Below are positions 33,548-57,663 of a stretch of 64,000 nt of DNA, piece after piece (within the stretch, counting starts at the first letter, position 1; every line of letters begins with the position of its first letter). The position numbers and the translations under genes are program-made. The stretch is from Vicinamibacterales bacterium (GTDB lineage Bacteria; Acidobacteriota; Vicinamibacteria; Vicinamibacterales; UBA8438), in the NCBI GenBank assembly GCA_965202695.1, contig OZ241843.1, positions 826,254-890,253 of the forward strand, written 5' to 3'. Under the pieces are notes generated by a model. It searched no databases. It was not told the DNA's origin and saw only the letters and a program-made list of their open reading frames with translations.

Positions 33548-33787
33548 TCATGGCTCGACGACAGGTCCCGCCGTGTCGCACGGTATCCGTTCGGCTCGTG
33601 CGCCGCGTTCTCCGGCGTCGTCCTCGCGGGGCGCCAGCGTACGGGGCGGGCACTGCACGTAGTTCCGGCCCGACTTGGCTTCCACGGCCTTGACGTGCCT
33701 GAAGATGGCTTCGAGGTCATCGTCGAACCGTGCGGCCAGCCGGTCTCGCGCGGCCCGCACTTCCGCCACGATGGGGTCGGTGGTCAT
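33548..33787 (-). CDS. Small partner protein of the upstream PIN protein (antitoxin-like, 79 aa)
   Basis: ATGA overlap with the PIN gene stop. IVAEVRAARDRLAARFDDDLEAIFRHVKAVEAKSGRNYV resembles small proteins I recall paired with this PIN family. Confidence 0.5.
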   Translation of the reverse strand: MTTDPIVAEVRAARDRLAARFDDDLEAIFRHVKAVEAKSGRNYVQCPPRTLAPREDDAGERGARAERIPCDTAGPVVEP

Positions 33788-34281
33788 CGTTCTCCATCCT
33801 CGTCCACGAGTTGTTCGGGCGTGCACAGCACCGGGGGATCGACGCCTGCTCCGCGACAGACCGATTCGATCCGCGGCCTGGACATCGCATTCGCAATGTG
33901 ACGGAAGTTCCACGTCACGAGAAACTCCACGCCGTGAACCGCGGCGATGGCGACGTGCGCCGCGTCTTGCGCCGCCCGTTCGGGAACGGCCCCGACACGC
34001 ACCAGACGCCGCGTCAGTTCCAGTGCTTCCGTCGGCGCCGCGAGCGTCGTCAGCGGCGCGAGGGCGGCAAGTCGGGCGCGGGACGCATCGTGATCGCCGA
34101 CGGCCGCTTCCTCCCGAACCAGTTCGGAAATCACGAGGTCGAACCGCTTGGGGGCAGTCTCCCACCAGTCGCGGGTGCTTTGTTGCCGGCCTGCGATCAC
34201 GACGTCGCGCGCCGGCCGCGCCGTCAGGTAGCTGACGATGCTGGTCTCGACATAGACGCGAGGTCTTGCGGATGCCGTCAT
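33784..34281 (-). CDS. PIN-like domain protein (VapC-family toxin candidate)
   Basis: VYVETSIVSYL (first acidic residue), LVISELVREEA, and AAQDAAHVAIAAVHGVEFLVTWNFRHI match a PIN-like layout. Confidence 0.65.
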   Translation of the reverse strand: MTASARPRVYVETSIVSYLTARPARDVVIAGRQQSTRDWWETAPKRFDLVISELVREEAAVGDHDASRARLAALAPLTTLAAPTEALELTRRLVRVGAVPERAAQDAAHVAIAAVHGVEFLVTWNFRHIANAMSRPRIESVCRGAGVDPPVLCTPEQLVDEDGER

Positions 34282-34405
34282 TCGTCCCTCACACCCGGAA
34301 CAGCAGGCGGCTCGTTGCCCACGTCTTCCGGTCAGCCGCTCGGATCGTCGAAGATCGAAACCCGGCCCGTTACGTGCGCACGATGCCGTGCATCCTCGAA
34401 AAGTT

Positions 34406-35602
34406 TCACGCCGCCTCCGGGACCCGGTTGGTCCGATAGGCTGATATCACTTCTTCCTTTATCAGTCCCCTGTGACCCAACCTCTTCGGAGCCAGCATCC
34501 TGTCCCGAATGGGATCTCTGAATCGGTCGAACAGCGCGAAACCCTTCTTTTCGATAATCGCATGCAGGACGTTCCACGTGCAAACTCTCACGCTTCCAAT
34601 CAGATTGTCCCCGCACACGACCACCAGACACGCATTGTCGTCCAGCGTGTCCCTTATCGTGTCGAACGCATTGTCCATGTCGTAGAAGTACCGATGAACG
34701 ACGGCGCACAGGCGGGGATTCCGCGACTTCAAGCTCCTCAACGCCGGCGCCAACGTGAAATCCCTTTCGATGGATTCCCGAGGCACCCCTTCCAGCAACC
34801 TTCCTCGTTCTCTCCCCACGAATCGTTCCTTCACGTCCTTCACCTTGAACGGCAGTACGTCTTCCAGCAGATGCAGCTCGAGCTTGAAGTTCCGAAAATA
34901 GTCCTGCGCGTTGATGTATGGCGGCGACGTGATGACGTGCGAGTGCCGCCCCAGGTCTCTGAAGCTCCGCCGCGGATCGCAAACGTCGGCGCAAGCGAAG
35001 CGGGATCCGACGCTCGCTTCGCGACCTCCCCCGTAGAGCATCGAGAGCTCTTCCAACAGCTTCAGCATGATTCCATACGGATCGAAATGCCGCCCCGCCC
35101 TCGAACGCCGCGCTTGCTGCGAGATGAACGGCTTCGGGCTTCGCTGATCCGCCCTGGAGCACAACCGGACCGCAAGAGCGTAACCGAGAAGAACGGGCCA
35201 ACATTCCGGGGTGCCCCGGAGAGGAACGCTCCTGCTGGCTGCTCTCAAGCGCTCGAATTTTTCGAGGGTGCCCGCCGTAAACCAGTAGCTCTTGCCGATC
35301 CAGTCAACCGGCAACGGTTCGATCGGGCGTTGCGCCTCGGCAATCCACGCCTTGCCGAGCTCCCGGGCGCGATCCAAGTCGAATCCCTGGACCTTCACGC
35401 GGTAGAACAACTCCGAGATCGGGTTCAAGTCGACACCTGAAACCCGAAGTCCGGCTCGGTTGGCCGCGGCGGCTATCGCACCCGATCCGCAAAATGGATC
35501 GAGAACGGAATCCGCCTCGGCCGCGTATCGCCGGATCAGCCGATCCGCCAGCCGGGACACCATCTTGCCCGGGTAGCGGTCCAGTCTCGTGGCCAGTCTC
35601 AT
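34406..35602 (-). CDS. Stand-alone DNA methyltransferase (N6-adenine/N4-cytosine; motif I N-terminal, motif IV SPPY ~230 aa later)
   Basis: ATG at 35602 overlaps the upstream stop (ATGA). VLDPFCGSGAIAAAA is motif I and HVITSPPYINAQDY is motif IV. Low G+C relative to the window. Confidence 0.8.
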   Translation of the reverse strand: MRLATRLDRYPGKMVSRLADRLIRRYAAEADSVLDPFCGSGAIAAAANRAGLRVSGVDLNPISELFYRVKVQGFDLDRARELGKAWIAEAQRPIEPLPVDWIGKSYWFTAGTLEKFERLRAASRSVPLRGTPECWPVLLGYALAVRLCSRADQRSPKPFISQQARRSRAGRHFDPYGIMLKLLEELSMLYGGGREASVGSRFACADVCDPRRSFRDLGRHSHVITSPPYINAQDYFRNFKLELHLLEDVLPFKVKDVKERFVGRERGRLLEGVPRESIERDFTLAPALRSLKSRNPRLCAVVHRYFYDMDNAFDTIRDTLDDNACLVVVCGDNLIGSVRVCTWNVLHAIIEKKGFALFDRFRDPIRDRMLAPKRLGHRGLIKEEVISAYRTNRVPEAA

Positions 35603-36549
35603 TTGCCGCCAGCCGTCTTGAGCACCCAGGTCGGACCGATTCCCGTGGAGAAGAACGCGTGGTTGTGCCGAAGCGGTCCCGCGTAGACGATCGCCGGCGG
35701 GTCGTCCGCCTTCCTGACGTAGTCGTAGATGCCCAACGTCTGCGGCTTGGTGCCCAGCGGACAGATGATCCGCGCGAAGCCACCCCTCCCCGACCCTCCG
35801 AGAACGTCCGTGAGAGTCGCGCTCGCCGCGGCCGGGTCCAGCGCATCGATTTTCCGAACCTCCTTTCTGCCGACCACGGTCAGAAGGTCGTGGTTGAACT
35901 CCTCCGTCCTTCCGGTCCAATCCGGCCTGTACGGTGGATCGGGGACCGCCAACGTCGTCTTCATCGGCTGGATCTGTTCATAGACCGCCATCGCCCGGTC
36001 GCCCTCGTATCCCAGGAACAGTATCAAGTGAACGGGGCGGCTGAGGTCGGGACAGGCGGAAAAGCCGGGAGCCTGTTGGAGAGAGGCGAGTCCAAACGAA
36101 AGCGGAACGTACCTGGAAACCAGATAGTCGCCCGGTTCGCTGTACACGACGTGCAGTCGGTCCCACAGACCGTGGTCGTCGAGCCACCGCAGCATCATCA
36201 GCAGGTGTCGCTTCGTGAAGACGGAAATGTCGATGACGACGGCCCGGCCGGCGGACCGCTCCATGGACCGGCGAAGCTCGTCCATGTTCGCGCGAAGGCT
36301 CGTGACCGCGTCGGCTTCCGTGAACTGAAGAACCGTCAACCGGGCGCCGAGCTTTCGGAACGCGGATTCCATCTGTCGATGGTTCCTTTCGCGCGCGGGG
36401 CTCTCGTCGTCGTAGTGAAACAGGACTACTTCACGCGGCGACCAGGCCTGCGCGCGAGTCAGAAGCCCCTTGCACCGATCCTCATGGCTGGAACAAGTGA
36501 TCAGCACCGCCCCGTCGGGCAGGCATCCAACCGTCAGCGGCCGCCTCAT
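35599..36549 (-). CDS. Uncharacterised 316-aa protein, middle gene of the TIR-NTPase/MTase operon
   Basis: ATGA overlaps at both ends (36546-36549 and 35599-35602). Alternating beta-strand-like hydrophobic runs (VLITCSS, VVLFHYDD, VVIDISVFTK, HLILFLGYEGD, ARIICPLGTKPQ) suggest Rossmann-like alpha/beta folds. No family recognised. Confidence 0.6.
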   Translation of the reverse strand: MRRPLTVGCLPDGAVLITCSSHEDRCKGLLTRAQAWSPREVVLFHYDDESPARERNHRQMESAFRKLGARLTVLQFTEADAVTSLRANMDELRRSMERSAGRAVVIDISVFTKRHLLMMLRWLDDHGLWDRLHVVYSEPGDYLVSRYVPLSFGLASLQQAPGFSACPDLSRPVHLILFLGYEGDRAMAVYEQIQPMKTTLAVPDPPYRPDWTGRTEEFNHDLLTVVGRKEVRKIDALDPAAASATLTDVLGGSGRGGFARIICPLGTKPQTLGIYDYVRKADDPPAIVYAGPLRHNHAFFSTGIGPTWVLKTAGGK

Positions 36550-38819
36550 TCGTCTTCCCCCATCTGGAACAAGGGGCGATTCCGCGACGTGTCGCTGTTG
36601 GAATTCTCCATCGCCTTCTTCAATCTGCGCACCGCGTGCTCCCTCGTGTCGGGTTGAAGCAGGCCCTGCAAGTCGGAGCACCGGACCGTGGTTCTCCAGC
36701 GGAGACGCGGACTGATCTGCAGGACGGGAGCGTAGACCCGGCAGATGTTGAATTCGACCGGCTGTGGATCGGAACCGTGCTTCGGCTTGAACGCCGGGAG
36801 ACCTTCCTTGGTCTGAAAAACCCCTTCCCGTTCGCCGACCGCAAGGACGCGTTTCAACGCCTTCATGGAGTCTTTTGCCAGTACTTCCGGGTCCGCGATC
36901 GTCAAGCGCGCCGCCTCCAGCTCGCTGGTGTGCCTGAGCAGCTTGTGCCGAAGACAGGCGCCAAGATCCAGCAAGAAGTACTTCAATTCTTCGCCGTGCC
37001 GCTCGACGTTGCGACTGAGCGTCGTGAGGTTGTCCTGGGAAACGATATGAACGGCTCTCGACTGCCGATCCGGCGGAAGAACGAGCGAGCCGGCCGGCGG
37101 AGACTCGGCGCCAAAGGTGAGGTGATAGCCGACGCTCAGGAATTCCTGGAAATAGCGGATTACCCCGGATCCCAGAAGCGCGAGCTCCTTGAAACCCGCG
37201 AACCGTTTCTCCTGTTGACGGCCGGACTTCGCGAGAAGGACTCGATAGAGCGCCGCTTGACCCCAGTAAGTTTTCTTCTCCCGTCGTTTTTCGTCCGGCA
37301 GGCTCTCGAATCGTTCAGGCGCGAGCTTGCTGAGCTTGGCCACTTCCGCGAGACACAGGGATGGATCCACCTCCGGGTCACCAAAGCCGGGCAGAAGTTC
37401 GTCCATGTCGAACGGCCGATCGTCGTCGAGCGTGACCATGTTCCTGACGATGTGCCGCAACAGCTCACGATAAGCCTTCTTCTGGTCCGCATCCTGCAGG
37501 TTGTAGACCAGAGGAACCCTCGTATAATCGTGAATCTCCTGCAACTCCTGACCGGTCGTCGTGGCCGGCGTATCTCCGCTCGCGAGTTTCTTGGCAATCT
37601 TGATCGAAAGATGTGGCGGACCGAGCTTGATCAGGCCGTTGACTATCCGTTGCTGGTAAGAAAACAGATTCTCGTATTCGTCGAGCAGAACGACGAACAT
37701 CGACGATTCGAGCGTGGGAACGGCTCTGCGCACCAGGAGCACGACGCGCTTGAATTGCTCCAGGTCGAACGTCGCCATCGGAACGGACGCCGCTTCCTGA
37801 TAGACGAACTTGCGCCGGATGAATTCCGCCAGTCGCTTGTGCGCACTCGACAGCTTTGCTTGCAGTTCCGCGAAGGAAACGATCCTGCCGTCCGTGGAGT
37901 CGAACAACAGCTCGTCCGCCGCTTCGCAAATACGTGGCTCGATATTCCTGCCGTACTCAATCAGATCATGCGTGACGCAGTACTCCAGTTCTGAAAACAG
38001 GCTTTCCGTCATTTGCAGCATCAGTTCCTGGGCTGCAACGTCCGTGAGGATGGCCTCGGCGGCCGAATCCAGGCGTTCGGCATCGAAACGGGCTCCAATG
38101 TTGCAAAGCGCCCCGCGAGTGAGCTTCAGGTAGAATCCGAAACGTCGGGGCGCCGTTTTTTCGGAAGGGCGCCGTTGCAGAAAGTTGCGCGCACGCAGAG
38201 ACAGCAGCAGCATCGACTTGCCGGTGCCCCGGGAGCCTTCGAGAATGCAGGGTGTCATTTCCTCCAGCGCGCCGATCTTGACGGTGTCCGGCGGCGCGAA
38301 CGTCTTGGCGTGAAGCTTCGGCTGTTTCTCGAAGTATTCCGCTCGAAGATGACGGAAAGGATTTCCTGAATCCGGCCTGAACGCCTCGGAGACCAGGGAC
38401 GACGCGGTCTGGTCGCTGAACAGCACCGCGCAGACCTCCTCGACCAGTTTCTTGACAGAATCCCGGTCGTCCGGTTCCAGCCGCCCGTACACCTTGGGTC
38501 CAAGTATCGGCGGCACAGGCGTGTCGTCCAGTCGGACGACGATGCACCGCCCGCCGTCGGCGGCGACCTCGTTCCAGACGGCGGCTTCGACTTCGAGATT
38601 CTGCCATCTTGCGGAACGAGTGTGCTCGGACAAGAGAATGATGATCGCGGCGGCGGCGCGGATCTCCTCGTTCATGAATGCGATGGCGCTGTCGCCAAGG
38701 CCGAGATCCTGCGTGTCGACCGTCGCCTCATGGCCCGCATTGCGGAGATGCTTCACCAGAGCGGTCGCGATGCCCGCGTCGGGGCCGGCGTGGGAAACGA
38801 AAATGCGTCTGATGCCCAT
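36546..38819 (-). CDS. TIR domain fused to a P-loop (ORC/Cdc6- or STAND-like) NTPase, 757 aa
   Basis: N-terminal IFVSHAGPD...IIILLSEHTRSARWQNLEVEAA is a TIR layout with the W-x3-E catalytic context. Walker A GSRGTGKS (aa 195-202), Walker B FVVLLDE (aa 375-381). Long helical C-terminal region. Confidence 0.8.
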   Translation of the reverse strand: MGIRRIFVSHAGPDAGIATALVKHLRNAGHEATVDTQDLGLGDSAIAFMNEEIRAAAAIIILLSEHTRSARWQNLEVEAAVWNEVAADGGRCIVVRLDDTPVPPILGPKVYGRLEPDDRDSVKKLVEEVCAVLFSDQTASSLVSEAFRPDSGNPFRHLRAEYFEKQPKLHAKTFAPPDTVKIGALEEMTPCILEGSRGTGKSMLLLSLRARNFLQRRPSEKTAPRRFGFYLKLTRGALCNIGARFDAERLDSAAEAILTDVAAQELMLQMTESLFSELEYCVTHDLIEYGRNIEPRICEAADELLFDSTDGRIVSFAELQAKLSSAHKRLAEFIRRKFVYQEAASVPMATFDLEQFKRVVLLVRRAVPTLESSMFVVLLDEYENLFSYQQRIVNGLIKLGPPHLSIKIAKKLASGDTPATTTGQELQEIHDYTRVPLVYNLQDADQKKAYRELLRHIVRNMVTLDDDRPFDMDELLPGFGDPEVDPSLCLAEVAKLSKLAPERFESLPDEKRREKKTYWGQAALYRVLLAKSGRQQEKRFAGFKELALLGSGVIRYFQEFLSVGYHLTFGAESPPAGSLVLPPDRQSRAVHIVSQDNLTTLSRNVERHGEELKYFLLDLGACLRHKLLRHTSELEAARLTIADPEVLAKDSMKALKRVLAVGEREGVFQTKEGLPAFKPKHGSDPQPVEFNICRVYAPVLQISPRLRWRTTVRCSDLQGLLQPDTREHAVRRLKKAMENSNSDTSRNRPLFQMGEDE

Positions 38820-38856
38820 TGGAGTTGTTAGAAATTCCCGTCTTGCGTGTTTTCCT

Positions 38857-41800
38857 TCACACCCGGAACACCTTCATCACCTCGTCGCCCAGGTGGTTGA
38901 TCACCTTCACGGCGATGCGGCCGGACGCGGGGCGGGGAAACGGGCGCGACGTGTCGCTGCGCAGGGTGGCCCACGCGTCGGGGTCGATCTCGGCCTTGAG
39001 CGTCGTGCGGAGCGCCTTGTACGGGTCGTTGGCGCCGAGGAAGTAGGCGTGGCGGACGAAGAAGCTCTCGTCGTTGTAGTCGGTGTCGATGAACCAGCAG
39101 GCGATGCCGTCGGGGCCGTCGCTGCGGACCTCGCCGGTGTTGGGGTGGAAGACGTCGACGCCGGCGATCCGGACCCGGATGCGGCCGGCGTCGGGCTTGT
39201 CGCCGCCGCCGGGCCTGTCGCCGCCGCCGGGCCTGTCGCTGGTGCCGGGCCTGTCGCCAGCGCCGGGCGTGTTGCCGGAGCCGGACTTGTCACCGGCGCC
39301 GGGGTCGCCGTGCGAATCGTCACCGTCGGCGGGCAGGATCTCGACGTCCGGCTCGCCGAAGACGACGAACAGGTTGCCCTTGCCGGTGTTCTTCAGCTCG
39401 CCGGCCATGTGCAGGTCGGCGTTCATGCGCGCCTTCAGCACGGGCAGGGCGCCGAGCCTGCTGAAGTCGGTGGTGTGCGGTTCGTAGTTGAAGGCGCAGG
39501 CGATCAGCACGTCGAAGCCGGCGTAGCCCGCTTCGCGCGCGGCGCGCACGAGGTCCTGCCGGCTCACCGTGCCGAACTCGGGGCCGACGAGGATGCCGGC
39601 ACGCCGCTCGGGGCCGTCGTCGTCCTCGCTTTCGACGTAGCGGCCCTGGGCGCAGATCAGGTGACCGGGCCAGGGGTCGAGCGCGGTGAAGCGGATGCGG
39701 TCGGCCTTGCGCGCCTGCTGCACGCCGGCGGTGGCGAGGTGGCCGAGCACCATCGCGGCGAAGTCTTCCGCCGACCCGTAGGCGGGGGCCTGCTCGGCGA
39801 CCCGGTCGATCAGCTCGTCGCGCTCGTCGAGGGCCAGCAGGCGGTGCGGCGACAGGCTTTCGACGGTGAACGGGCCGGCGACGCGCACCTTCTTTCGGTC
39901 GTCGTACGGCTTGTCGTAGAGGTATTCGACGTCGGCGCGCGCGGCGATGGAGGCGTCGATCTCCCGCTGCCGCGCGATGCGCGCCTCCCACCACCGGCGG
40001 TGCGCTTCGGCCGCGGCGGCCGGCCACGGGTCGCGCGGCCCGGCGGGGAGATCGGTCAGCGTGTAGCGGCGGTCGAGCGCGGCGTTGACGGCGCGCAGGG
40101 CGGCGGCGCGGTCGGCGTCGGTCCCGGCTGCTTCCAGACGCTTCCAGGCCGCGGCGGCCGCGGGGGGCCACGGCTCGCCGGCGTCGCGCGGGATCTCCCA
40201 CTCCCGCCACGACCGGCCGAGCGCGGCGTTCAGGTCGGCGCGGAGCGGCTCGAGCGTCTCCTGCCAGCGTTCCCAGATGACGTCGATCTCCGCGTTGTTG
40301 GCGATCGACTTGAGGGTGACGTGCGGCACGCGCTCGTAGACGAAGCCCTGCCGGACGTCGCCGCGCGTAGGCGCCTCGGACGGGGCCGCGCCGGTGATTT
40401 CGGCTTCCTTCCGCTGTCCCTCCGGGCTGTCGGCGAGCAGGTAGTAGGGGTAGCGCGCGCCCATGATGCGGGCGCGGGCGAGCGCGAGGGCGACGCGCGA
40501 CGTGTCGATGGTGATCCAGCGGCGGCCCCACTGCTCGGCGACGTAGGCGGTGGTGCCGGATCCGCAGGTGGGGTCGAGGACCAGGTCGCCGGGGTCGGTC
40601 GCGAGCAGGATGCAACGTTCGATGACCTTATTGCTTGTTTGAACTACATAGGTGAGTCCCGTGCCAAGTTGAACAGATTCCCATCTGTCATTTAGAGGAA
40701 CGACAGCAAAATCATCGATACGCCGGATGTATCTGATCGTTCGTCCACTAGAACGAACGCGTCCAGCAGCAGCAAGTCTCGTCAAACCTGCGAAGTTGGA
40801 TTTGGACGTTCCCTGGCCGGGCATGTATGCTACGCCTTGATAAACAAACTCAAGAAGATCTCCTTCTCCTTTCGGGCGAGCGCTCGTCAACGACGTAAGC
40901 TGACATCGTATAACCGCGCCAGCGGTTTCACCGTTTGATTCGTCATCGAGATCGCTTTTGTTCAATCTGCGAAGAGTGCCGTCTTGCGCAATAGCCATAT
41001 CGTAGCGTTCAAGTGTAGTACTCCCGGGTCTGCGTTCCGCATAAAGCCGGCGGTACTTCACTCGTTCAATATTCCTTGCGAAAACCAAAAGGTAGTCGAT
41101 GGTCTGCGGAACAAGTGTTTGATCCGTTGAACCCGTTTTTTGGAAACCTATTGTACCGACGTAATTGTCTCGTCCGAATACCTCATCCATCAGCGCCCGC
41201 ACCCGGTGGACGTTCTCGTCGCCGATCTGCACGAAGATGCTCCCGCTCTCCGTCAGCAGCTCCCGCGCCACGGTCAGCCGGTCGCGCAGGTAGGTCAGGT
41301 ACGAGTGAATCCCGTCGCGCCACGTGTCGCGGAACGCCTTCACCTGCTCGGGCTCACGGCTGATGTGCTCGGCCTTGCCGTCCTTGACGTCGCGGCTGGT
41401 GGTGGACCACTGGAAGTTGGAGTTGAACCGGATGCCGTAGGGCGGGTCGAGATAGATGCACTGCACCTTGCCGCGCAGCCCCTCGCGCTCGGCCAGCGAC
41501 GCCATCACCTGGAGGCTGTCGCCCAGGATCATCCGGTTCGACCAGTTGGCGTCGTGCCGGTAGAACTCGGTGCGGGCGTCGCCGGCGGGCAGGCCGTTGA
41601 AGTCGGCGAACAGGTCGGGCTGCCCGTCCCCGCCCCCGGCGCCCGCCTGCCGCGCGCGGGTCTCGCGCCGCAGGTCGTCGACGAGGACCTTCGGGTGCAC
41701 CTTCTCCTGGATGAAGAGCGGCGGGGCGGGCACGACGAGGTCGGACCAGTCCGCGAGGTCCTTGCCGCGCCAGACGAGCTGCGGGTCGAGGTCGCGGTTG

Positions 41801-41943
41801 CGGCGCTTCCAGGCGGTGCGGACCGGCTCCTGCTCGGCCGGGCCGAGGACCGGCTCGAACTCGGCGGTCGGGATGTTCCGGCGCGAGGCGGCGCCGTGGG
41901 TGAGGGTCTCGACCGTCCTGGGTTTCTTCGGTGTCCGCGCCAT
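38857..41943 (-). CDS. mod: Type III restriction-modification methyltransferase (Mod), beta-class N6-adenine MTase with long C-terminal extension
   Basis: ATG at 41943. IYLDPPYGIRFNSNF (motif IV) precedes VLDPTCGSGTTAYVA (motif I), with a divergent low-G+C TRD between them. The upstream part of the 1160-aa ORF overlaps vapC and is rejected. Confidence 0.85.
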   Translation of the reverse strand: MARTPKKPRTVETLTHGAASRRNIPTAEFEPVLGPAEQEPVRTAWKRRNRDLDPQLVWRGKDLADWSDLVVPAPPLFIQEKVHPKVLVDDLRRETRARQAGAGGGDGQPDLFADFNGLPAGDARTEFYRHDANWSNRMILGDSLQVMASLAEREGLRGKVQCIYLDPPYGIRFNSNFQWSTTSRDVKDGKAEHISREPEQVKAFRDTWRDGIHSYLTYLRDRLTVARELLTESGSIFVQIGDENVHRVRALMDEVFGRDNYVGTIGFQKTGSTDQTLVPQTIDYLLVFARNIERVKYRRLYAERRPGSTTLERYDMAIAQDGTLRRLNKSDLDDESNGETAGAVIRCQLTSLTSARPKGEGDLLEFVYQGVAYMPGQGTSKSNFAGLTRLAAAGRVRSSGRTIRYIRRIDDFAVVPLNDRWESVQLGTGLTYVVQTSNKVIERCILLATDPGDLVLDPTCGSGTTAYVAEQWGRRWITIDTSRVALALARARIMGARYPYYLLADSPEGQRKEAEITGAAPSEAPTRGDVRQGFVYERVPHVTLKSIANNAEIDVIWERWQETLEPLRADLNAALGRSWREWEIPRDAGEPWPPAAAAAWKRLEAAGTDADRAAALRAVNAALDRRYTLTDLPAGPRDPWPAAAAEAHRRWWEARIARQREIDASIAARADVEYLYDKPYDDRKKVRVAGPFTVESLSPHRLLALDERDELIDRVAEQAPAYGSAEDFAAMVLGHLATAGVQQARKADRIRFTALDPWPGHLICAQGRYVESEDDDGPERRAGILVGPEFGTVSRQDLVRAAREAGYAGFDVLIACAFNYEPHTTDFSRLGALPVLKARMNADLHMAGELKNTGKGNLFVVFGEPDVEILPADGDDSHGDPGAGDKSGSGNTPGAGDRPGTSDRPGGGDRPGGGDKPDAGRIRVRIAGVDVFHPNTGEVRSDGPDGIACWFIDTDYNDESFFVRHAYFLGANDPYKALRTTLKAEIDPDAWATLRSDTSRPFPRPASGRIAVKVINHLGDEVMKVFRV
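39193..39318 (-). repeat. Seven in-frame 18-bp tandem units inside mod (Gly/Asp/Pro-rich hexapeptides)
   Basis: Units of gggc(c/t)tgtcgcc(g/a)(c/g)cgcc encode GDPGAG-DKSGSG-NTPGAG-DRPGTS-DRPGGG-DRPGGG-DKPDAG. Confidence 0.8.
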
Positions 41944-41960
41944 GACTGCTGCGCTCTCGT

Positions 41961-42359
41961 TCACGTCTCCCATACCGTCTCGACGTGCGGGTAATCGAGA
42001 ATCCTCGCATCGGCCGTGACGACGGGCGCCGACAACCTGCGGGCTTCCGCGACGATGATCCGATCCGCCGGGTCGCGGTGGAACGGGACAGGCAATGCAT
42101 AGGCTTCTTCGACGGTCCCCAGTTCTACCGGCAGCACCGTCCAGCCGTTCGATTGCACGTGGCCCCGGAACCAGCGGCGCCAATGCCGATCGAGTTCGAT
42201 ACGCCCGCGCTCCGCGGCGCACGCGATCTCGGCGCAACTGATGGCGGAAACGCATACCTTCGTATCGGCCGTTTCCAGGATCGCGACGACCCGGTCGGGA
42301 AGCCGCTCGGGTTCGCTGACCGCCCAGATGATCGCGCAAGTGTCGAGTACGACCGTCAC
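41961..42359 (-). CDS. vapC: PIN-domain toxin VapC
   Basis: VVLDTCAIIW (first Asp), SAISCAEIA, HRDPADRIIVAEA and VVTADARIL are canonical PIN acidic-residue positions. 4-bp overlap with the upstream antitoxin. Confidence 0.85.
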   Translation of the reverse strand: MTVVLDTCAIIWAVSEPERLPDRVVAILETADTKVCVSAISCAEIACAAERGRIELDRHWRRWFRGHVQSNGWTVLPVELGTVEEAYALPVPFHRDPADRIIVAEARRLSAPVVTADARILDYPHVETVWET

Positions 42360-42604
42360 GACGGTTTCTTCCCCAGCATCTCCCAGTCGCCGAGCGGGAT
42401 CATGGGGTCGACCAGACTCTTCTTGACGACGACCGACCCCCTGCCGGAGCCGAGTACCGTCCGGTTGCGTTGATGGGCCGGGATCGGGACTACGCGGGCG
42501 AGAGGCGTGTTCCGTTTCCGGATCTCCAGCTCCTCTCCGTTCTGGACGGCGGCGAGGTACTCGCTCAAGTGGTTCTTGAACTCCGCGACGTTGGCTATCT
42601 TCAT
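42356..42604 (-). CDS. Phd/YefM-family antitoxin
   Basis: MKIANVAEFKNHLSEYLAAVQNGEELEIRKRNTPLARVVP is a Phd/YefM N-terminal fold signature. ATG at 42604. Confidence 0.75.
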   Translation of the reverse strand: MKIANVAEFKNHLSEYLAAVQNGEELEIRKRNTPLARVVPIPAHQRNRTVLGSGRGSVVVKKSLVDPMIPLGDWEMLGKKPS

Positions 42605-42663
42605 GGCCGCATTATAGGCCCTGTCCGAGCGGGGCCGTCCGGGCGCGGCGTTCGTCGCGGCTG

Positions 42664-42915
42664 TCACCGGTTACCCGCGCGTGGGTCGGAATCCGTGGCG
42701 GCCACGGGACGGAGCCGCGCCGCCGGAACCGTGGCCACCGCCGCCGTGCCGCCGTCAAGGGTCAGAAACTCCACCTCGAAGGCCCGGCCGTCGCGATAGA
42801 CGTGCACGATTGTGCCGACGTCTCCCGCCTTCAGGCGCAGGCCGGGAACGTCCTCCGTGAGCACGATGCGATCATGTTCTTCCAGCATCGCTCGTCCGGC
42901 CCGTGGCAGTTTCAT
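42664..42915 (-). CDS. DUF4926-domain protein
   Basis: HDRIVLTEDVPGLRLKAGDVGTIVHVYRDGRAFEVEF matches my recollection of DUF4926. An alternative start is at 42888. Confidence 0.55.
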   Translation of the reverse strand: MKLPRAGRAMLEEHDRIVLTEDVPGLRLKAGDVGTIVHVYRDGRAFEVEFLTLDGGTAAVATVPAARLRPVAATDSDPRAGNR

Positions 42916-42945
42916 GCGCTCCGGCGACCATCGGTGTCCGGGGCA

Positions 42946-43191
42946 TCAGGCCGCCCCGCCTTGCGTGAACTCGAAGACCGTCAGCGGAACGGACCGAACC
43001 GGCGCCGCGTCGCCATGCGCCATCCGCCGGACCCGCTCCGCGGTTTCGCGGCTGAGCGACTGCTCTCCGCACCGGACGCAGACACGCGCCGGAATGCGGC
43101 CGACCAGCACGTAGCGGTCGCCGACGCGAAAGACGTCGTCGACCAGATCGTCACGGCTCCGATCGGCGCCGCAGACCGGGCAGTCAGGCAT
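42946..43191 (-). CDS. YgiT-type zinc-finger protein (MqsA-N-like)
   Basis: CPVCG...(x27)...CVRCGE form two CxxC pairs with the typical YgiT spacing. Confidence 0.65.
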   Translation of the reverse strand: MPDCPVCGADRSRDDLVDDVFRVGDRYVLVGRIPARVCVRCGEQSLSRETAERVRRMAHGDAAPVRSVPLTVFEFTQGGAA

Positions 43192-43233
43192 GCTTGTCTC
43201 CGTCGGATGTAATCGACGTGTCCAGGAGGAACT

Positions 43234-43455
43234 TCACAACTCCACGTCCCGCGCGACGTCACGGGGCCGAATGAGGTCGACGCCCTCCAGCGGGCAGGCC
43301 GCGAGCAGAGCCTTGAAGCCGCGACCGGACGCGGCGCCGAACCGTTCGCGCAACGTAGCCCGCGCAGCAACCTCGCATTCCGGGTCGCGCAACGGCGCGG
43401 CTACCGTGCGAACGAGCTGGTCCTTGTAGGTTGTTCTGGCAGGCATGGTCGTCAT
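43234..43455 (-). CDS. Hypothetical small protein (73 aa)
   Basis: ORF sits in the position where a toxin would follow the upstream antitoxin, but it has no PIN features. The C-terminus LEGVDLIRPRDVARDVEL looks antitoxin-tail-like. Confidence 0.3.
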   Translation of the reverse strand: MTTMPARTTYKDQLVRTVAAPLRDPECEVAARATLRERFGAASGRGFKALLAACPLEGVDLIRPRDVARDVEL

Positions 43456-43458
43456 CCC

Positions 43459-43905
43459 TCACTCTGGCCCGGCATCATCCCAGTCGCCGGGCGGGATCAG
43501 AGGGTCCACCAGACTCGTCCTGACGATCACCGAACCTCGGCCGGAGCCGAGCACCGTCCGATTGCGTCGGACGGCGCGGGCGTCCGGCGCGTTCCGGTTC
43601 CGGATCTCCGGCTCCTCTCTGTTCCCGAAACCAAGCTCGTCGGCCGGGTCGAGCGGTTCCAGCGTATCGTCCACGTCAGGGAACTCGTCGGGTAGCGGCG
43701 GCAGACGCGCGAGCAGGTCGAGCAGGCGGCCCTTCCCGACCGGTTCGATGACCAAGCGGTCCCCGTCGCGCCAGATGACGGCTTCCGCGCCGTCGATCTC
43801 GAAGTCGCGGGGAATGCGCACCGCCTGACTGCGCCCGCTCCTGAACAACCGTACGCGGCGCACTGCTTCCGGTTCGTCCCGGGACTTCCGCATACCTCGA
43901 ATCAT
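43459..43905 (-). CDS. Chimeric antitoxin: AbrB/MazE/SpoVT-type VapB N-terminus + Phd-type C-terminal tail
   Basis: GGAGG RBS 8 nt before the ATG at 43905. RLFRSGRSQAVRIPRDFEIDGAEAVIWRDGDRLVIEPV is the AbrB swapped-hairpin. The tail RNRTVLGSGRGSVIVRTSLVDPLIPPGDW is near-identical to the tail of the 42356-42604 antitoxin. Confidence 0.65.
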   Translation of the reverse strand: MIRGMRKSRDEPEAVRRVRLFRSGRSQAVRIPRDFEIDGAEAVIWRDGDRLVIEPVGKGRLLDLLARLPPLPDEFPDVDDTLEPLDPADELGFGNREEPEIRNRNAPDARAVRRNRTVLGSGRGSVIVRTSLVDPLIPPGDWDDAGPE

Positions 43906-44137
43906 ATGCCGGCCTCCGTCTCGCACCAAAACCGACGCGGCAGAACGTTGCCTGCGATCCTCGATCGTCCGGCTCGTCACCACCGAGACGACGGACGCAC
44001 CAAACCGACGCGGCAGGGAACGTTGCCTGCGATTCGGGGCATGGTGACGGCTCCGCGCCGGCCGCGAGGAATCCACGGTTCCGCGCCGCGCCGCCGCCGA
44101 TCATCGGGTACGATGCGGAAGACGGTGTGATTCCGCC

Positions 44138-45091
44138 ATGCCTGACCGAACCGCGCGTCACGTCCACGGCCCCCCGGACGCCTGGACGGTCATCGACGGC
44201 CGCCCGGACGAGACCGAACTGCGGCCCGTCCTCGACGCCATCGCCGCGGCCGTCGATCCGGACCGCATCATCGTGTTCGGCTCCGCCGCCCGCGGGACGA
44301 TGACCGCCGACAGCGACGTCGATCTGCTGGTCGTCAAGCGCACCGACGACCTGCGCGCGCTCCGCGCCGCCGTCCGCGCCGCGCTGGCCGCCAACCGGCG
44401 GCCGGTCGACGTCGTCGCCGGCACGCCGCGTATGCTCGACGAGCAGCGTCGATGCCTGAGCATGGTGTACGGCCCCGCGTTGCGGGACGGGGTCGTCGCC
44501 TGGGCCCGTGGCGCCCGCGAGACGACGGGCGCTCCCGCGTGGAGCACGCTGCCCGAACGGAAAGGAACCTCCGGCGAAATGGTCCGAACCCTGCGCTTCC
44601 GCCGCGAGGAAGCGGACACGTGGCTTGCCAAAGCTCGGGAAGATCTGACCGTGGTGAACACCACCGACGCGGCGATTCCCTTCGCGCCGCGGGCGTACAG
44701 CGCGCAGGCGGCGACGGAGAAGGCTCTCAAGGCGCTGCTCGTGGCGCACGGGCGGCCGGTTCCGTTCGACCACGATCCGGACACGCTGGCCGACCTCGCC
44801 GTCCAGCAGGGCGAAGCGCTGCCGGCCGTCGCCGCCCGCGACGCCCTGGAAGCGTTGTCCGACTACGGCGGACCGGCGCAATACCCGCACTACGGCGGGG
44901 AGGCCGACCCGGGCGCCGAAACCCTGTTTCCGGCGATCGCCAACGAGATGACGGCCCACGCGGCGTCCCGCGTCGACGCGATCCTGCGTGGGAAGCGCCC
45001 CCGGAAGGCCGCGGGCGACGCCGGTCGGCCCGACCAGGAAGGAAAGCGTCCGGGCCGGAGCGGTCCGGCTGGCGAAGAATCAAGCGACTGA
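44138..45091 (+). CDS. Fused minimal nucleotidyltransferase (MNT) + HEPN-domain protein
   Basis: IIVFGSAARGTMTADSDVDLLVV is the GSxxRG...DxD NTase motif. The C-terminal helical region ADTWLAKAREDL...EKALKALL...YP has a HEPN-like layout. Confidence 0.6.
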   Translation: MPDRTARHVHGPPDAWTVIDGRPDETELRPVLDAIAAAVDPDRIIVFGSAARGTMTADSDVDLLVVKRTDDLRALRAAVRAALAANRRPVDVVAGTPRMLDEQRRCLSMVYGPALRDGVVAWARGARETTGAPAWSTLPERKGTSGEMVRTLRFRREEADTWLAKAREDLTVVNTTDAAIPFAPRAYSAQAATEKALKALLVAHGRPVPFDHDPDTLADLAVQQGEALPAVAARDALEALSDYGGPAQYPHYGGEADPGAETLFPAIANEMTAHAASRVDAILRGKRPRKAAGDAGRPDQEGKRPGRSGPAGEESSD

Positions 45092-45224: not shown

Positions 45225-48200
45225 CTATCGGCTCGGGAGGGACGCGAACGTCCGCTCGAAGGCGGCGGAGACGGCGGCGTCGAGGTCGGTCTCCATCGCG
45301 TACGCGGACGTCATCTCCCGGAACGTCCAGCGGCCGAACGCGCCCAGGCGGTTGACGGCCGGGACCCAGTAAGTCTCCATCGCCGTCTTCTTGTCCTTCG
45401 CGTCCTCGCGGCGGTAGCCCTTGACCTCGACCACGAGACGCAGGAGGTCGTCGGGGCCGCGCCCGTCGTCGACGAGCAGGACGAAGTCGGGCAGGTAGCG
45501 CCGGTGCTCGGCGCCGCGGCGGTAGGGGACCTCCAGCCCGAGGTTGTGGTTCTTGACGTACGCCCGCACCCGCGGGTGCGCCTCGGCGACGCGGCAGAAC
45601 TCCGCCTCCCAGTCGCTGTCGCAGACGGCCCAGTCGACGTGGCAGCGCCGGGCGTCGGTTTGCCAGCGGGTCTGCTTCGACGTGGCGAACCGCACGTGCC
45701 GCGTGGACCCCTCGGGGTTGTAGGGGTCGAGCATCGCCTGGATCGGGCGGGTCTCCCGATGCCGCTCGACGATGCCGTCGGTGATGCGCCGGCAGGCGTG
45801 GTCGGCCAGCTCGGCGTACAGCAGTTGCGCCGGGCGCGTGCCCCCTTCGCAGACCAGATGCGCGTCGAGCCACTGCCGGGCGATGCGCTTGAGCTGGCCG
45901 AACAGGTACAGCCGGGGCTCCTGGTTCGGGTCGCGCCACTCGGTCAGCAGCAGATGGCGGGTCAGGTGGTAGAGCAGCGTGGCGCGCCGCACGGCGCCGG
46001 CGCGGACCAGCGTCAGGTCGATCCCCTCGCCGACGATCCCCTCGTTGCGGGTGACGGCGGGGCCGACCAGCTCGGGGGTGAGCACCAGGGTGGAGTCGTC
46101 TTCGAAGCGGGCCGTCAGCCGGTCGTCGGGGAGCTCCACGCGGTAGCCCTGGACGCGCGGGAAGCGGATTTCGCACGCGTCGCGGTCCGGCGTCACCGCC
46201 CGCACCATGACCGTCTCGCGCGGCGGCAGGGGCGGGGCCACCACCGGCTTGGCGGTGAAGTCGAACGGGATGCCGAGCACGTCGGCGTACTCCACGTCGA
46301 ACAGGCCGGTCTCGCCGTTGACTTCGTACGACTGCCGGCGTAGCGCGCGGCCGACGATCTGTTCGCAGAGAAGCTGCGTGCCGAACGCCCGCACGCCCAG
46401 CAGCCCGTGGTGGAACCCCCGCGTCGCACCGAGAGCGGCGATGCGCCCGCCTGACAAGGCGTGAGAAGGGCGCATATTGGGCATATTCAACCGCCGAACA
46501 ACGCAGTCAGGCGGGATGCAGCGCCGCTCGAATGCAGCGGGGCGTTTCACCACGGGCTGCCAGGACGTGGGTGACGGTGCGCGCGTCCCAGCCCTCGCTG
46601 AGCATCGAGACCGACACCACGCAGCGGGTCCGCCCGCCCAGGCGGCCCTCGACGCCGACGGTGTTGACCACCTCGCGCAGCAGGTCTTCGTCGGTGAGCC
46701 GGTCGGCCTGCCGCCGGTCGCCGGTGCGCGCGACGATCTCGCGCCGGAAGCGTTCGATCTCGTCGGCCGCCGCGGCGCGGAACCCCCGGTCGAGCGCCTC
46801 GCCCGAGTCGAGCTGCTCGCTGTCGATCAGCAGCGTCCGGGGTCGGGGGCAGGGGCGGCCGTGCTCGTCGAAGTTGCGGAAGAGCGGCAGGCGGCCCTGC
46901 TCCAGGCTGGTCGAGCCGTCCTCGCGCCGGCGGTGGAACCCGGAGACGTAGTCGTAGACCAGCTTCGACGTGGCGGTGTTGTTGCAAACGATGATGAAGC
47001 AGGGGGGACGCGGATGCCCGCCTCCCGCCACGCGTCGAAGGTCCGCGCGTAGTGGCCGTACAGCGCCTCGAGGGCGGTCACCAGCTTCGTCGGCAGGCGC
47101 AGCGGATCGGCCGCGCCCGCCCCGCGGCCCTTCTTCGGCATCTGCCTGCCGACGTGCTTCCACAGCTCGCGGAACTGGGGCATCTCGGCGCCGGGGACGT
47201 TGTCGGCCACCGGCACGCGCGGCAGCTTGACGATGCCGCACTCGATGGCGTCGAGCAGCGAGAAGTCGCTCGCGGTCCACGGGAACAGCGTCCCCTCGGC
47301 ATAGCCCGACCCGCGCAGGAAGAACGGCGTCGCCGACAGGTCGACGACCCGCTGCAGGCCGAGCCGGCGCCGCACCGCTTCGAGGCCCGACATCCAGATG
47401 CGCGCGGCCTCGCGGTTCTTCTGCGCCTCCTGCCACTCGTCGCCCCGCAGCGCGCCCTCGACCGACTCGGCCGGCCTCTCGCGGTAGCAGTGGTGGGCTT
47501 CGTCGTTGAGCACCCAGATCCGCTTCAGGCCCATCAGCTCGGGCAGGACCCGCTGCAGCATCCGGCCCTCGGTCTCCCGCGTGCGCAGCGGGGCGCCCTG
47601 GCCCTGGAGCAGGGCGCGGCCGACGGCGGAGACGGCCAGCGTCTCGCGCCGCTGGAACGCGTGGTAGTTGGTGACGACGATCTTCGCCCGCTCGAGGTCG
47701 CGGAGCATGTCGGGCGGGACCAGCTCGCGGCTCGCGTAGTAGCTGTCGGGGTCGTGGGGCTGGAGCACGCGCAGGCGTTCGCGGATGGTCACGCCGGGCG
47801 CGACCACCAGGAACCCCCGCGTGAAGCGCGGGCTGGCCGGGCGCCGGACCGCGTTGACGGTCTGCCACGCGATGAGCAGGGCCATGACGGTGGTCTTGCC
47901 GGCGCCGGTCGCGAGCTTCAGGGCCACCCGGTCCAGGGCGGCTGACGGCTCCGCCGCCGCCCCGGCGTTCGCGTTCGCCAGGTGCTCGAGGTAGCCGCGT
48001 CCCTCCCGGCCGATCTTCGGCGCGACCTCGGTCAGCCAGATCACCGTCTCGGCCGCCTCGACCTGGCAGAAGAACGGGCGGACGCCGCCGAAGGCGTGGC
48101 GCCGCCAGTGCCGCAGCAGGCGCGCGGTTTCGGGCGTGACCCGCCACGCGCTCTCCGGCGCCGCCCGCCAGCCGTCGACGGCGCGCCGCAGGCCGTTGAC

Positions 48201-48461
48201 GAACGCCGTCAGGTCGTACTGCTGGTCCGCGGTCCCGACCGCCGCCGCGGTCTCGTCGGCGACCAGCGCGAGCTGCCGGGCGCGGCGTTTCCGGGGCGCG
48301 GGGATCGGCGAGACGTACGCCGAGGGCCGCCGCCCGTCGACGACGCGGTTGGTCGGCCGGTTGTCCGCGTCGAGCTCCCAGTGGCGGCCCGGCCGCTCGT
48401 ACGGCGAGTTGAGGATCGGCCGTTCGTGGAAGGCGTCGGAATCCGCGAACATCCGGGGCAT
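45225..48461 (-). pseudogene. res: Type III restriction enzyme Res subunit (SF2 helicase + C-terminal PD-(D/E)xK nuclease), disrupted twice
   Basis: Walker A LATGAGKTT, DEAH box VLNDEAHH, motif VI-like SMLSEGWDARTVTHVL, nuclease core LPDF...VVEVKG. The reading frame breaks at the G6 tract 47002-47007 and again at a 160-bp insertion at 46401-46560. Confidence 0.8.
46401..46560. mobile_element. Family-1 palindromic MITE/REP-like element (160 bp) inserted in res
   Basis: Termini are CAGCCCGTGGTGGAAC (46401-46416) and, as the reverse complement of the right end, (G)CAGCCCGTGGTGAAAC. The ~55-bp arms are mutually inverted. CAG flanks both sides (46398-46400 and 46561-46563). Deleting 46401-46560 restores ...TVTHVL-LGVRAFGTQLLCEQ in frame. 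Confidence 0.65.
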
Positions 48462-55950: not shown

Positions 55951-56086
55951 AGGAAGCCGTTCCCACCCGGGCGCTCCGCCCGGGAGCCGGCGGCGAGACC
56001 GCGGAGCGCCGCCGCGAGCGCGTCGGGAACACGGCGGCGCGCGGGCGGAGACCTGGACCCGCCCCATCAGGACGAGAGTTTCTGCA

Positions 56087-57616
<1,530 letters not shown>

Positions 57617-57663
57617 CGCCGGAGAGCGAGCGTCCCTCGCCCCCGGCCCGAGAGCAGCATCCA

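Follow-up and report, generated by a model that had tools for sequence, protein, structure and literature searches.

A target-recognition domain exchanged en bloc in a Type III-like mod gene, and a family-wide AT offset of such domains

A methyltransferase gene of a 72%-GC soil acidobacterium contains a block of far lower G+C content than its flanks. What does this block encode, how was it acquired, and does its composition tell us where it came from and when? The gene, mod, occupies positions 38857-41943 on the minus strand of the window, by which we mean the whole 64,000-nucleotide stretch of DNA analysed, and its reading frame is intact. The host was assigned in part by a search for AtpD homologues; a comparison of AtpD with PDB did not settle the phylum, and Rfam and tRNA scans gave no rRNA usable for this purpose. 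The original prediction was that a low-G+C cassette at 40610-41190 had replaced the target-recognition domain (TRD), through recombination with an allele from a much lower-G+C donor and too recently for amelioration.

mod encodes a β-class N6/N4 DNA methyltransferase of 1028 residues, which belongs to a Type III-like restriction-modification system. Its start codon, the ATG at 41943, is backed by homology to the start of L086, an allele from a close relative. The product matches PF01555 (N6_N4_Mtase) above the gathering score (E = 1.2e-27; residues 170-497 of a 1038-residue query starting at 41973, or ~160-487 in the 1028-residue numbering from 41943) and the PADLOC model MTase_III PDLC03632 with 1362 bits. 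The N-terminal catalytic half can be aligned with Type III Mod structures (6k0w, E = 2e-17; EcoP15I Mod, 4zcf, E = 6e-16), with a further short match flanking motif I and the TRD outside the alignment. The motifs are circularly permuted: the catalytic DPPY (motif IV; 41437-41448, minus strand, codons 166-169) lies N-terminal to the AdoMet-binding DPTCGSG (motif I; 40555-40575, minus strand, codons 457-463), and the variable TRD is in between. Across 58 Mod homologues, Asp166, Pro167, Pro168 and Tyr169 are invariant, as are Asp457, Pro458, Thr459, Cys460, Gly461 and Gly463; Ser462 is nearly so (at least 90%). Codons ~255-448 form the sole hypervariable block across the mod family. Modelled with AlphaFold2 on an alignment of 58 sequences, full-length Mod gives a structure of too low a confidence for a fold search (mean pLDDT 48), with values of 76-86 in the TRD core. 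The identification of the low-G+C segment as the TRD of a β-class, Type III-like Mod is supported; the peptides cited in the original prediction are present, and the segment does lie between DPPY and DPTCGSG, the TRD position.

The TRD cassette itself spans 40600-41181 (minus strand, codons 255-448), with a G+C content of 0.495 and a GC3 of ~0.43. On its 5' side, a conserved scaffold (41182-41943, minus strand; G+C 0.707, GC3 ~0.99) encodes the N-terminal region and motifs IV-VIII and is 96-100% identical at the nucleotide level to L001, L084, L085 and L086. The 3' scaffold (38857-40599, minus strand; G+C 0.731, GC3 ~0.96) encodes the motif I region and a C-terminal extension of ~430 residues, in which no Pfam domain was matched; it is 95-100% identical to the same four close relatives, except for a linker rich in G, D and P in the C-terminal portion of the protein. 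This linker is encoded by a tandem repeat with an 18-bp period (39184-39303; 6.7 copies, 81% matches by TRF), which differs in length among alleles and appears as an alignment gap in the relatives.

The drop in G+C content is real, and the cassette lies within ~10 bp of where it had been placed. Segment 40610-41190 has a G+C content of 0.489, the flanks are indeed host-like (~70% had been predicted; window mean, 0.711), and the count of 27 G or C among the 60 nucleotides of 40681-40740 is exact. In 580-bp windows across the 64 kb (mean 0.711, sd 0.05) there is a clear break, the cassette being the lowest-G+C stretch of that size, with the minimum at 40607-40614. Along the open reading frame, GC3 falls from 0.93-1.00 to 0.30-0.57 across codons ~380-570 of that frame. 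Codons ending in A or T make up 108 of 194 in the cassette versus 31 of 834 in the remainder of mod (Fisher p = 4e-63), where GC3 is 0.96-0.99. We found no promoter, terminator or antisense element embedded in the AT-rich block.

The edges of the cassette are defined by comparison with 97%-identical relatives. Homology ends after GCGCTGATGGATGAG (41182) and resumes at ACCGACCCCGGCGAC (40599), which gives the limits 40600 and 41181; the breaks in homology and in composition are no more than a few codons apart. The scaffolds of five alleles (the window's, L001, L084, L085 and L086) are 96.9-98.7% identical at the nucleotide level, and these alleles carry five unrelated TRDs with 30-45% amino acid identity, at common and sharp breakpoints. 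Against the TRDs of relatives with 97%-identical scaffolds, the window's TRD has an identity of 30-35% in amino acids and 39-47% in nucleotides. L086 is collinear with the window (97% identity over 33587-40619, 96% over 41173-41943), collinearity extends over 7 kb downstream, and the TRD alone differs. The 213 alleles include 97 pairs whose scaffolds are at least 95% identical, and in 71 of these the TRDs are less than 50% identical. The closest TRD found (P0002/L002; 81% identity in amino acids, 77% in nucleotides) is on a scaffold of 87% identity, and the 39 TRDs of the same class (at least 60% amino acid identity) are on scaffolds 57-88% identical to the window's. As judged from these alignments, the predicted swap is confirmed: the TRD was exchanged en bloc, probably through recombination in conserved flanks. 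The ancestral allele could be any one of the five. The window's cassette is one interchangeable allele, set between two highly conserved scaffold segments and replaced as a block, with breaks at the homology edges after ALMDEVFG and before TDPGDLVLDP; the probable route is uptake of DNA from related strains and homologous recombination in the flanks.

The mosaic might be an artefact of a chimeric metagenome assembly, in which reads from two strains were joined through the conserved scaffolds. The sequence seems to stem from the assembly of an uncultured organism, an assembler could switch strains at conserved scaffolds, and the 1-nt frameshifts in res and in a second methyltransferase gene (see below) might be assembly errors. 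We give this explanation very little credence, as the same in-frame architecture of GC-rich scaffold and AT-rich TRD is found in every one of >200 independent alleles, isolate genomes included, and a strain switch would alter which TRD is linked while leaving an AT-rich TRD between GC-rich scaffolds.

Sources of variation within the locus were also considered. A local shufflon or a store of silent cassettes was rejected on the uniqueness of the junction sequences in the window: in a search of the 64 kb for spare junctions or cassettes, both were single-copy at up to three mismatches, the sole other match being a poor one with three mismatches ~16 kb away (57126-57142). A diversity-generating retroelement or other in-situ hypermutation was rejected because the TRDs differ along their whole length (30-45% identity, indels included) rather than at scattered positions. 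Phase variation (a phasevarion) was likewise rejected for want of a simple-sequence repeat tract that could switch the frame: TRF finds no homopolymer, tetranucleotide or pentanucleotide tract in mod, its other arrays there are few, short and low-scoring (2-4 copies with periods of 6, 9 and 12, all multiples of three), and the 18-bp-period linker repeat stays in frame.

Given unrelated TRDs on near-identical scaffolds, the methylation specificity of this Mod very probably differs from that of the copies in close relatives, and the window's enzyme would methylate another sequence. To this extent the claim of a change in specificity holds up; its recency had been inferred from the low G+C content, and that part is unsupported. 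Exchanging a recognition domain changes the sequence that is methylated and, in an intact system, the sequence that is restricted, so closely related soil Acidobacteria with the same locus would differ in their epigenetic marks and in their barriers to phage and gene flow.

Does the AT-richness of the cassette point to a low-GC donor? The mod family is present in >500 species from nearly all phyla, in hosts ranging from 38% to 70% GC. Each of 77 alleles, all from different species, has a TRD GC3 below that of its scaffold (mean difference, -0.28; Wilcoxon p = 2e-14), and the offset is present in low-GC hosts too. In 73 of 76 loci, TRD GC3 also lies below that of the host genes nearby, by about 0.18 and with hosts of 38-48% GC among them, and scaffold GC3 is higher than theirs in 67 of 76; the values for these genes come from rough ORF calls and are probably too low in high-GC hosts. 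The family-mean GC3 trough covers codons 241-450. Poor conservation as a general cause of low GC3 was rejected because codons 91-120, which are poorly conserved too, have a GC3 of 0.78 and no drop. Whatever the G+C content of the host, an AT-rich TRD is a standing trait of the family. Being common to the whole gene family, this trait does not show a recent low-GC import.

These observations bear directly on the predicted donor, that is, on a recent import of an allele from a much lower-G+C genome, not yet ameliorated to the 72%-GC host. Such an import agrees with the very sharp compositional break, coincident with the break in homology; the scaffolds are only ~3% apart from those of relatives with other TRDs, making the swaps recent relative to scaffold divergence; and the range of hosts, from 38% to 70% GC, means that such donors exist. 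The same account, however, predicts many low-GC hosts in which the TRD is GC-richer than the scaffold, and we saw this in 0 of 77 alleles; even at a host GC of 38-48%, TRDs are AT-richer than the neighbouring genes. The offset of the window's TRD (GC3 of 0.43 vs 0.97) is at the extreme of the family range, and the window's TRD and that of L002 (0.44 and 0.41) fall below the other members of their class (0.47-0.77), which an ancestor in a lower-GC host could explain. The cassette may therefore once have resided in such a host. Against recent arrival from one, the TRD of L002 is as AT-rich as the window's in a 65%-GC context, even though the two have diverged substantially in their synonymous positions (60% identity at four-fold sites). 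AT-richness also persists in same-class TRDs whose four-fold sites have reached saturation.

A clade of alleles (L101-L106) shows how such TRDs evolve in place. Here TRD and scaffold are co-inherited and co-diverging (84-96% nucleotide identity), and GC3 is 0.48-0.52 in the TRD vs 0.85-0.90 in the scaffold, in a sister TRD class (65% amino acid identity to the window's cassette) from hosts of ~62% GC. Polarised singletons in these TRDs comprise 21 changes from GC to AT and 10 from AT to GC, the opposite of amelioration, and are incompatible with movement toward a GC3 of at least 0.65 (p ≤ 9e-4); they are terminal-branch singletons, in part from low-coverage metagenome contigs, and the scaffolds show a GC-to-AT excess too. 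Searches of 5.8 billion proteins and 241 million metagenome records found neither a low-GC donor nor an identical TRD. With the TRD alone as query, the protein search gave short fragments of at most 64% identity and no donor, and did not recover the known 81% match; the best identity in metagenome contigs was 64%. Full-length Mod against genome contigs gave, among the matches listed, relatives with 56-66% identity; those with 82-84% were absent from the list. The much lower-G+C donor and the failure to ameliorate for lack of time, both part of the original prediction, are thus not borne out, and we consider a recent low-GC import unlikely.

Mobile DNA tends to be richer in AT than the genomes of its hosts. 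An AT-rich mobile reservoir of phage or plasmid copies might keep resupplying TRDs, those in chromosomes being fairly recent arrivals. mod sits in a defence island whose cargo varies on either side of the gene, as this would lead one to expect, and in a few pairs the TRDs are more alike than the scaffolds (e.g. 0.99 vs 0.92 and 0.95 vs 0.88). Yet TRD GC3 follows host G+C content (r = 0.64, slope 1.2), unlike what is expected of a common external pool, and TRD identity tracks scaffold identity within TRD classes, both co-diverging in L101-L106. A near-identical TRD on a distant scaffold was seen in 0 of 22,578 pairs. Resupply from such a reservoir seems to us distinctly improbable.

We favour, with a probability of roughly 0.7, the reading that the cassette is an interchangeable TRD allele whose AT-richness is a family-wide trait and largely uninformative on the G+C content of the donor or the date of the swap. 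A sharp intragenic drop in G+C content is a textbook sign of recent AT-rich import; here it is a constant feature of the cassette in every host examined, and composition alone is unfit for dating or sourcing such swaps. The unexplained, modestly novel point is the family-wide, apparently stable AT offset of TRDs. Recombination has been linked to GC3 in bacteria (PMC4450053). Speculatively, the scaffolds could pair with any incoming allele and so undergo GC-biased gene conversion (gBGC) and homogenisation; the TRD could pair only with a rare allele of its own class and would drift toward AT-biased mutational equilibrium as a result. It is possible, although we hold this only tentatively, that TRD AT-richness is a stable steady state, with pairing-dependent GC enrichment and TRD classes that are old and rarely paired. 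Family scaffold GC3 is 0.71-0.72 next to the TRD vs 0.78-0.85 further off, which can be read either way for gBGC. If the offset reflects recombination-dependent GC enrichment, the mod family offers an unusually clean test of bacterial gBGC with a within-gene control; if the steady state is real, low-GC blocks in other balanced, hypervariable loci will have been wrongly taken for recent foreign DNA.

The window's mod is of a known kind, with en-bloc exchange of the recognition domain as in the Type III gene modA of Neisseria and of Haemophilus influenzae, where the DNA recognition domain (DRD) is reported to have a G+C content below that of its flanks (PMC3311624), taken by the authors as horizontal acquisition (Gawthorne et al. 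2012, PMC3311624). In both, the recognition domain is central, hypervariable and lower in G+C content than the conserved 5' and 3' regions of mod around it, and one scaffold carries unrelated domains, transferred en bloc, in close relatives. Unlike modA, the window's gene carries no tract of simple-sequence repeats for phase variation in the 5' part of its coding sequence; its Mod is ~1000 residues long with a C-terminal extension of ~430 residues, and the gene order is res, small ORF, mod. Since the host is a soil acidobacterium of 72% GC, the contrast is also far larger than in modA (GC3 of 0.97 vs 0.43). What goes beyond modA is the offset across phyla, whose apparent stability argues against its use as evidence of recent import.

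With EcoP15I (Mod2Res, 4zcf) and 6k0w, the window's Mod shares the order of motif IV before motif I with the TRD between, and an alignable N-terminal catalytic half. An SF2 helicase (ResIII) and a C-terminal endonuclease domain, as in the EcoP15I Res subunit, are matched in the window's interrupted res. The differences are that the TRD cannot be aligned by sequence, that Mod is ~380 residues longer, that Res is a BPTD_3080-family enzyme (NF046055) without a PADLOC match, and that the two genes stand in the opposite order, separated by a small ORF and, in the window, with res broken. In Helicobacter pylori, TRDs undergo 'domain movement'. Allelic diversity of TRDs is also seen in Type I HsdS and Type IIG enzymes (Furuta et al. 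2010, PMC2853133); as in mod, recognition domains are exchanged within a conserved framework among closely related genomes, diversifying specificity. These enzymes often use intragenic repeats or silent cassettes, but the window holds no second copy of a junction or cassette.

The restriction gene, res (45237-48443, minus strand), encodes a BPTD_3080-family enzyme with ResIII helicase and RE_endonuc domains, both found by Pfam, and is disrupted, the NF046055 match falling across two ORFs; a literature search for BPTD_3080 gave no match. The product has ~84% amino acid identity to the intact Res of L002, with the middle third in another frame. The lesions are a 1-nt deletion, a hairpin insertion of 157 nt and a premature in-frame TGA at 46827-46829. 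The palindromic, MITE-like insertion (46403-46559, minus strand) is missing from L002 res, folds into a near-perfect hairpin (-60.6 kcal/mol, z = -6.9) and occurs once in the window. With res disrupted, Mod has probably become a solitary methyltransferase.

In L002, L003 and L102 the gene order is res, small ORF, mod, so that mod is not upstream of res; in the window, ~3.3 kb of toxin-antitoxin-type genes separate res from mod. The small Zn-ribbon/MqsA-like ORF (42946-43233, minus strand; weak MqsA_antitoxin match) is 92-94% identical in nucleotides to an 81-residue gene abutting mod in L086 and L001, its homologue being directly upstream of mod in relatives. Between this ORF and mod sits a module of a Phd/YefM antitoxin (PF02604) and a putative PIN (VapC-like) toxin, the latter assigned from its translation (41961-42667, minus strand). 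L086 lacks this module, at each end of which ~15 bp of the mod start region recur as an imperfect direct repeat. Directly downstream of mod, the variable defence cargo is a gene for a TIR and ORC/CDC6-like ATPase protein (36546-38819, minus strand; PF13676, PF24389; G+C ~0.60) with 99% amino acid identity to the L086 gene. A second, small N6_N4 methyltransferase homologue (34287-35602, minus strand) is frameshifted: in a tblastn search with the 441-residue L086 methyltransferase, residues 1-218 match in one frame and 217-439 in another.

The mod gene occupies positions 38857–41943 on the minus strand and encodes a Type III-like methyltransferase of 1028 residues; the ATG at 41943 aligns with the start of a close homologue, which supports it as the initiation codon. 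The protein has matches to PF01555 (N6_N4_Mtase, E = 1e-27) and, over its full length, to the PADLOC Type III methyltransferase model (1362 bits). Its catalytic half aligns to the solved Type III Mod subunit 6k0w (E = 2e-17) and to EcoP15I Mod 4zcf (E = 6e-16), with a second short match at motif I and an unalignable stretch in between. Motif IV (DPPY, 41448–41437, minus strand) precedes motif I (DPTCGSG, 40575–40555, minus strand); this is the β-class arrangement, and the variable block between the motifs is thus the target-recognition domain (TRD). The C-terminal extension of ~430 residues contains no known domain. A tandem repeat of 18-bp period (39184–39303, 6.7 copies) codes for a G/D/P-rich linker in this C-terminal part of Mod and varies in length among alleles that are otherwise 97% identical. 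The family of ~1000-residue Mod proteins is unusually well conserved for a restriction-modification gene (loci L004–L083): outside the TRD, protein identity is 62–76% across Acidobacteriota, Pseudomonadota, Chloroflexota, Cyanobacteria, Planctomycetota, Spirochaetota and other phyla, with >597 species among the matches listed.

The original prediction placed a sharp drop in G+C between DPPY and DPTCGSG, and this is where we find it. In a 120-bp sliding window, G+C falls from 0.74–0.75 to 0.46–0.56 at ~40600–41200 and returns to 0.68–0.69. The predicted segment, 40610–41190, has a G+C content of 0.489, and the 580-bp windows of lowest G+C in the entire 64 kb (mean 0.711, s.d. 0.05) start at 40607–40614, no more than 4 bp from 40610. 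The count of 27/60 reported for 40681–40740 is exact, and the peptides quoted for the block are present in it. Nearly all of the break occurs at third codon positions, with a third-position G+C (GC3) of 0.30–0.57 inside and 0.93–1.00 on both sides; 108 of 194 codons in the TRD cassette end in A or T, whereas 31 of the 834 other mod codons do so (Fisher p = 4e-63).

Comparison with close relatives demonstrates that the TRD has been exchanged as a unit. Four homologous Mod proteins (P0001, P0003, P0004 and P0005) are 95–98% identical to Mod on either side of the block and only 33–36% identical inside it; in a fifth, P0002, the flanks are 86–87% and the TRD 81% identical. The conserved 5' and 3' parts of mod (the scaffold) share 96.9–98.7% DNA identity among the window and the homologous loci L001, L084, L085 and L086, whereas the five TRDs are pairwise 30–45% (amino acid) and 39–52% (nucleotide) identical. 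Homology to the relatives ends just after ...GCGCTGATGGATGAG (41182) and resumes at ACCGACCCCGGCGAC (40599), which defines the cassette as 40600–41181, codons 255–448; the composition and homology breaks are 1–3 codons apart at most. L086 is collinear with the window (97.0% over 33587–40619 and 96.4% over 41173–41943), and the TRD is the sole replaced piece in ~8.4 kb. Among 213 alleles, 71 of the 97 pairs with scaffolds ≥95% identical have TRDs that are <50% identical, making replacement the rule in this family. Neither junction sequence has a second copy elsewhere in the 64-kb window; a local store of silent cassettes is thus absent. DNA from related strains would have entered through homologous recombination within the conserved flanks. 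At the 3' junction, the window allele reads ILLAT, its scaffold relatives ILMTT, and TRDs of its own class commonly ILMAT; judged from these sequences, the crossover was probably just downstream of the motif.

A TRD swap by recombination had been predicted, and this part of the interpretation stands. The further proposals, a low-G+C donor and an exchange too recent for amelioration, were not demonstrated and are disfavoured on five counts. The offset is not peculiar to the window: TRD GC3 is ~0.61 in L001 (scaffold 0.97–0.99) and 0.40 in L002 (scaffold 0.90–0.93). In a set of 77 alleles, each from a different species and together covering most bacterial phyla and host G+C contents of 0.39–0.70, GC3 is lower in the TRD than in the scaffold in every case (mean difference 0.28, Wilcoxon p = 2e-14). 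A causal role of donor composition predicts that low-G+C hosts often carry TRDs richer in GC than their scaffolds, but there are none among the 77. The GC3 trough of the family average coincides with codons 241–450, and codons 91–120, another poorly conserved stretch, show no drop. The TRD also falls short of the neighbouring genes in GC3 at 73 of 76 loci (mean −0.18), hosts of 38–48% G+C included, and scaffold GC3 exceeds theirs at 67 of 76 (+0.10), the neighbour values being based on crude ORF calls and probably underestimated in high-G+C hosts. In L055, for example, GC3 is 0.15 in the TRD, 0.40 in the neighbours and 0.56 in the scaffold.

Neither a TRD-only protein search nor a metagenome scan found a closer TRD than that of P0002/L002 (81% amino acid and 77% nucleotide identity), which resides in a context of 65% G+C, has a GC3 of 0.41 and is only 60% identical to the window TRD at four-fold sites, a substantial divergence already. 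Four-fold sites are saturated in more remote TRDs of this class, which are still AT-rich relative to their own scaffolds. Six alleles of a sister TRD class (L101–L106, 65% amino acid identity to the window TRD) have co-diverged in TRD (84–96% nucleotide identity) and scaffold (84–92%), and all six retain a TRD GC3 of 0.48–0.52 next to a scaffold GC3 of 0.85–0.90. Polarised singletons in these TRDs comprise 21 GC-to-AT and 10 AT-to-GC changes, a ratio incompatible with a drift toward GC3 ≥0.65 (binomial p ≤ 9e-4), and the equilibrium it implies is low; some of the contigs are of low coverage, and scaffold singletons are also in GC-to-AT excess. AT-richness thus appears to be a lasting trait of the TRD cassettes in the mod family, not an un-ameliorated scar. 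The window cassette lies at the extreme end of the family range (GC3 0.43 vs 0.97), so it may have passed through a lower-G+C host, although nothing requires this.

What keeps the TRDs AT-rich? The main alternative to the explanation we prefer is an AT-rich mobile reservoir that supplies cassettes continuously. It fits less well, as TRD GC3 tracks host G+C (r = 0.64, 76 loci) and TRD and scaffold co-diverge in L101–L106. TRD identity follows scaffold identity within TRD classes, and near-identical TRDs on distant scaffolds are seen in 0 of 22,578 pairs; by sequence comparison, the classes therefore resemble old alleles reshuffled locally rather than a fast-moving global pool. We favour a GC enrichment that depends on homologous pairing. 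Scaffolds would form heteroduplexes with any incoming allele, which would homogenise them and expose them to GC-biased gene conversion; a TRD, able to pair only with a rare allele of its own class, would relax toward the AT-biased mutational equilibrium. An association of recombination with GC3 is reported to be general in bacteria and independent of codon selection (PMC4450053). If true, the pairing model would cover both the scaffolds, AT-poor relative to their neighbours, and the TRDs that are AT-rich relative to theirs in low-G+C hosts.

In modA of Neisseria and Haemophilus, a central recognition domain is likewise exchanged en bloc between conserved 5' and 3' regions, and its G+C content below that of the flanks was interpreted as horizontal acquisition (PMC3311624). 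Type IIG enzymes, too, are known to have diverse TRD alleles in closely related genomes (PMC2853133). The window mod is a member of another Type III-like family, a very widespread one, and differs from modA in lacking a phase-variation repeat, in its long C-terminal extension, in the reversed gene order, in its broken res partner, and in a much larger compositional contrast. The finding of an AT offset throughout the family, and of its apparent stability, goes beyond the literature we found, and cautions against taking G+C troughs as recent foreign DNA.

The partner restriction gene, res (45237–48443, minus strand), belongs to the BPTD_3080 family (ResIII helicase and RE_endonuc) and its product is ~84% identical to the intact homologue in L002. 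The gene is broken: a single nucleotide is deleted near 47004, and ~157 nt are inserted at 46403–46559, a MITE-like palindrome forming a near-perfect hairpin (z = −6.9) and present as a single copy in the window; a premature TGA at 46827–46829 results from the disruption. Going by these lesions, Mod is probably now a solitary methyltransferase. The gene order in relatives is res, small ORF, mod. A ~1-kb toxin-antitoxin module (41928–42946, minus strand), consisting of Phd/YefM and a putative VapC-like PIN protein recognised from its translation alone, has been inserted precisely into the space that separates the small Zn-ribbon ORF from the start codon of mod; it is missing from L086, and sequence from the start region of mod flanks it as an imperfect direct repeat of ~15 bp (TGCCCCGGACACCGA / TGGCGCGGACACCGA). 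More toxin-antitoxin-like genes lie between mod and res, as does an NTase-HEPN gene, and downstream of mod is a TIR and ORC/CDC6-like ATPase gene (99% amino acid identity to L086). In each relative, the res–mod gap and the region downstream of mod carry different defence-type cargo (33587–45091; L001, L002, L084–L086, L101–L106): TIR-ORC/CDC6, Cmr type III-B CRISPR genes, Gabija-like AAA_15/21 with UvrD, AAA_21 with DUF4276, MC6-CTD10-DUF2326, Hydrolase_3 with PRTase-CE, or NTase-HEPN. Given this variation, the res–mod pair looks like the anchor of a defence-gene hotspot.

A second small N6_N4 methyltransferase downstream of mod (34287–35602, minus strand; 441 residues in L086) is split into two reading frames near 34950, owing either to a genuine frameshift or to misassembly. 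The region from 34 to 44 kb has a G+C content of 0.58–0.68, compared to 0.72–0.75 in the remaining window. Directly upstream of res and in the same frame is a 791-residue ORF (48597–50972, minus strand) of host-like GC3 (0.94) that matches nothing in Pfam, NCBIfam or PADLOC. A tRNA-Ser(CGA) gene (54669–54759, minus strand) lies between the defence island and atpA/atpD (55832–60057, plus strand) and may mark the integration boundary of the island. At the low-coordinate edge, 29952–33482 (minus strand) encodes a large protein with RNase H-like, PD-(D/E)XK and SF1-helicase regions, classed as MkoA-like by PADLOC.
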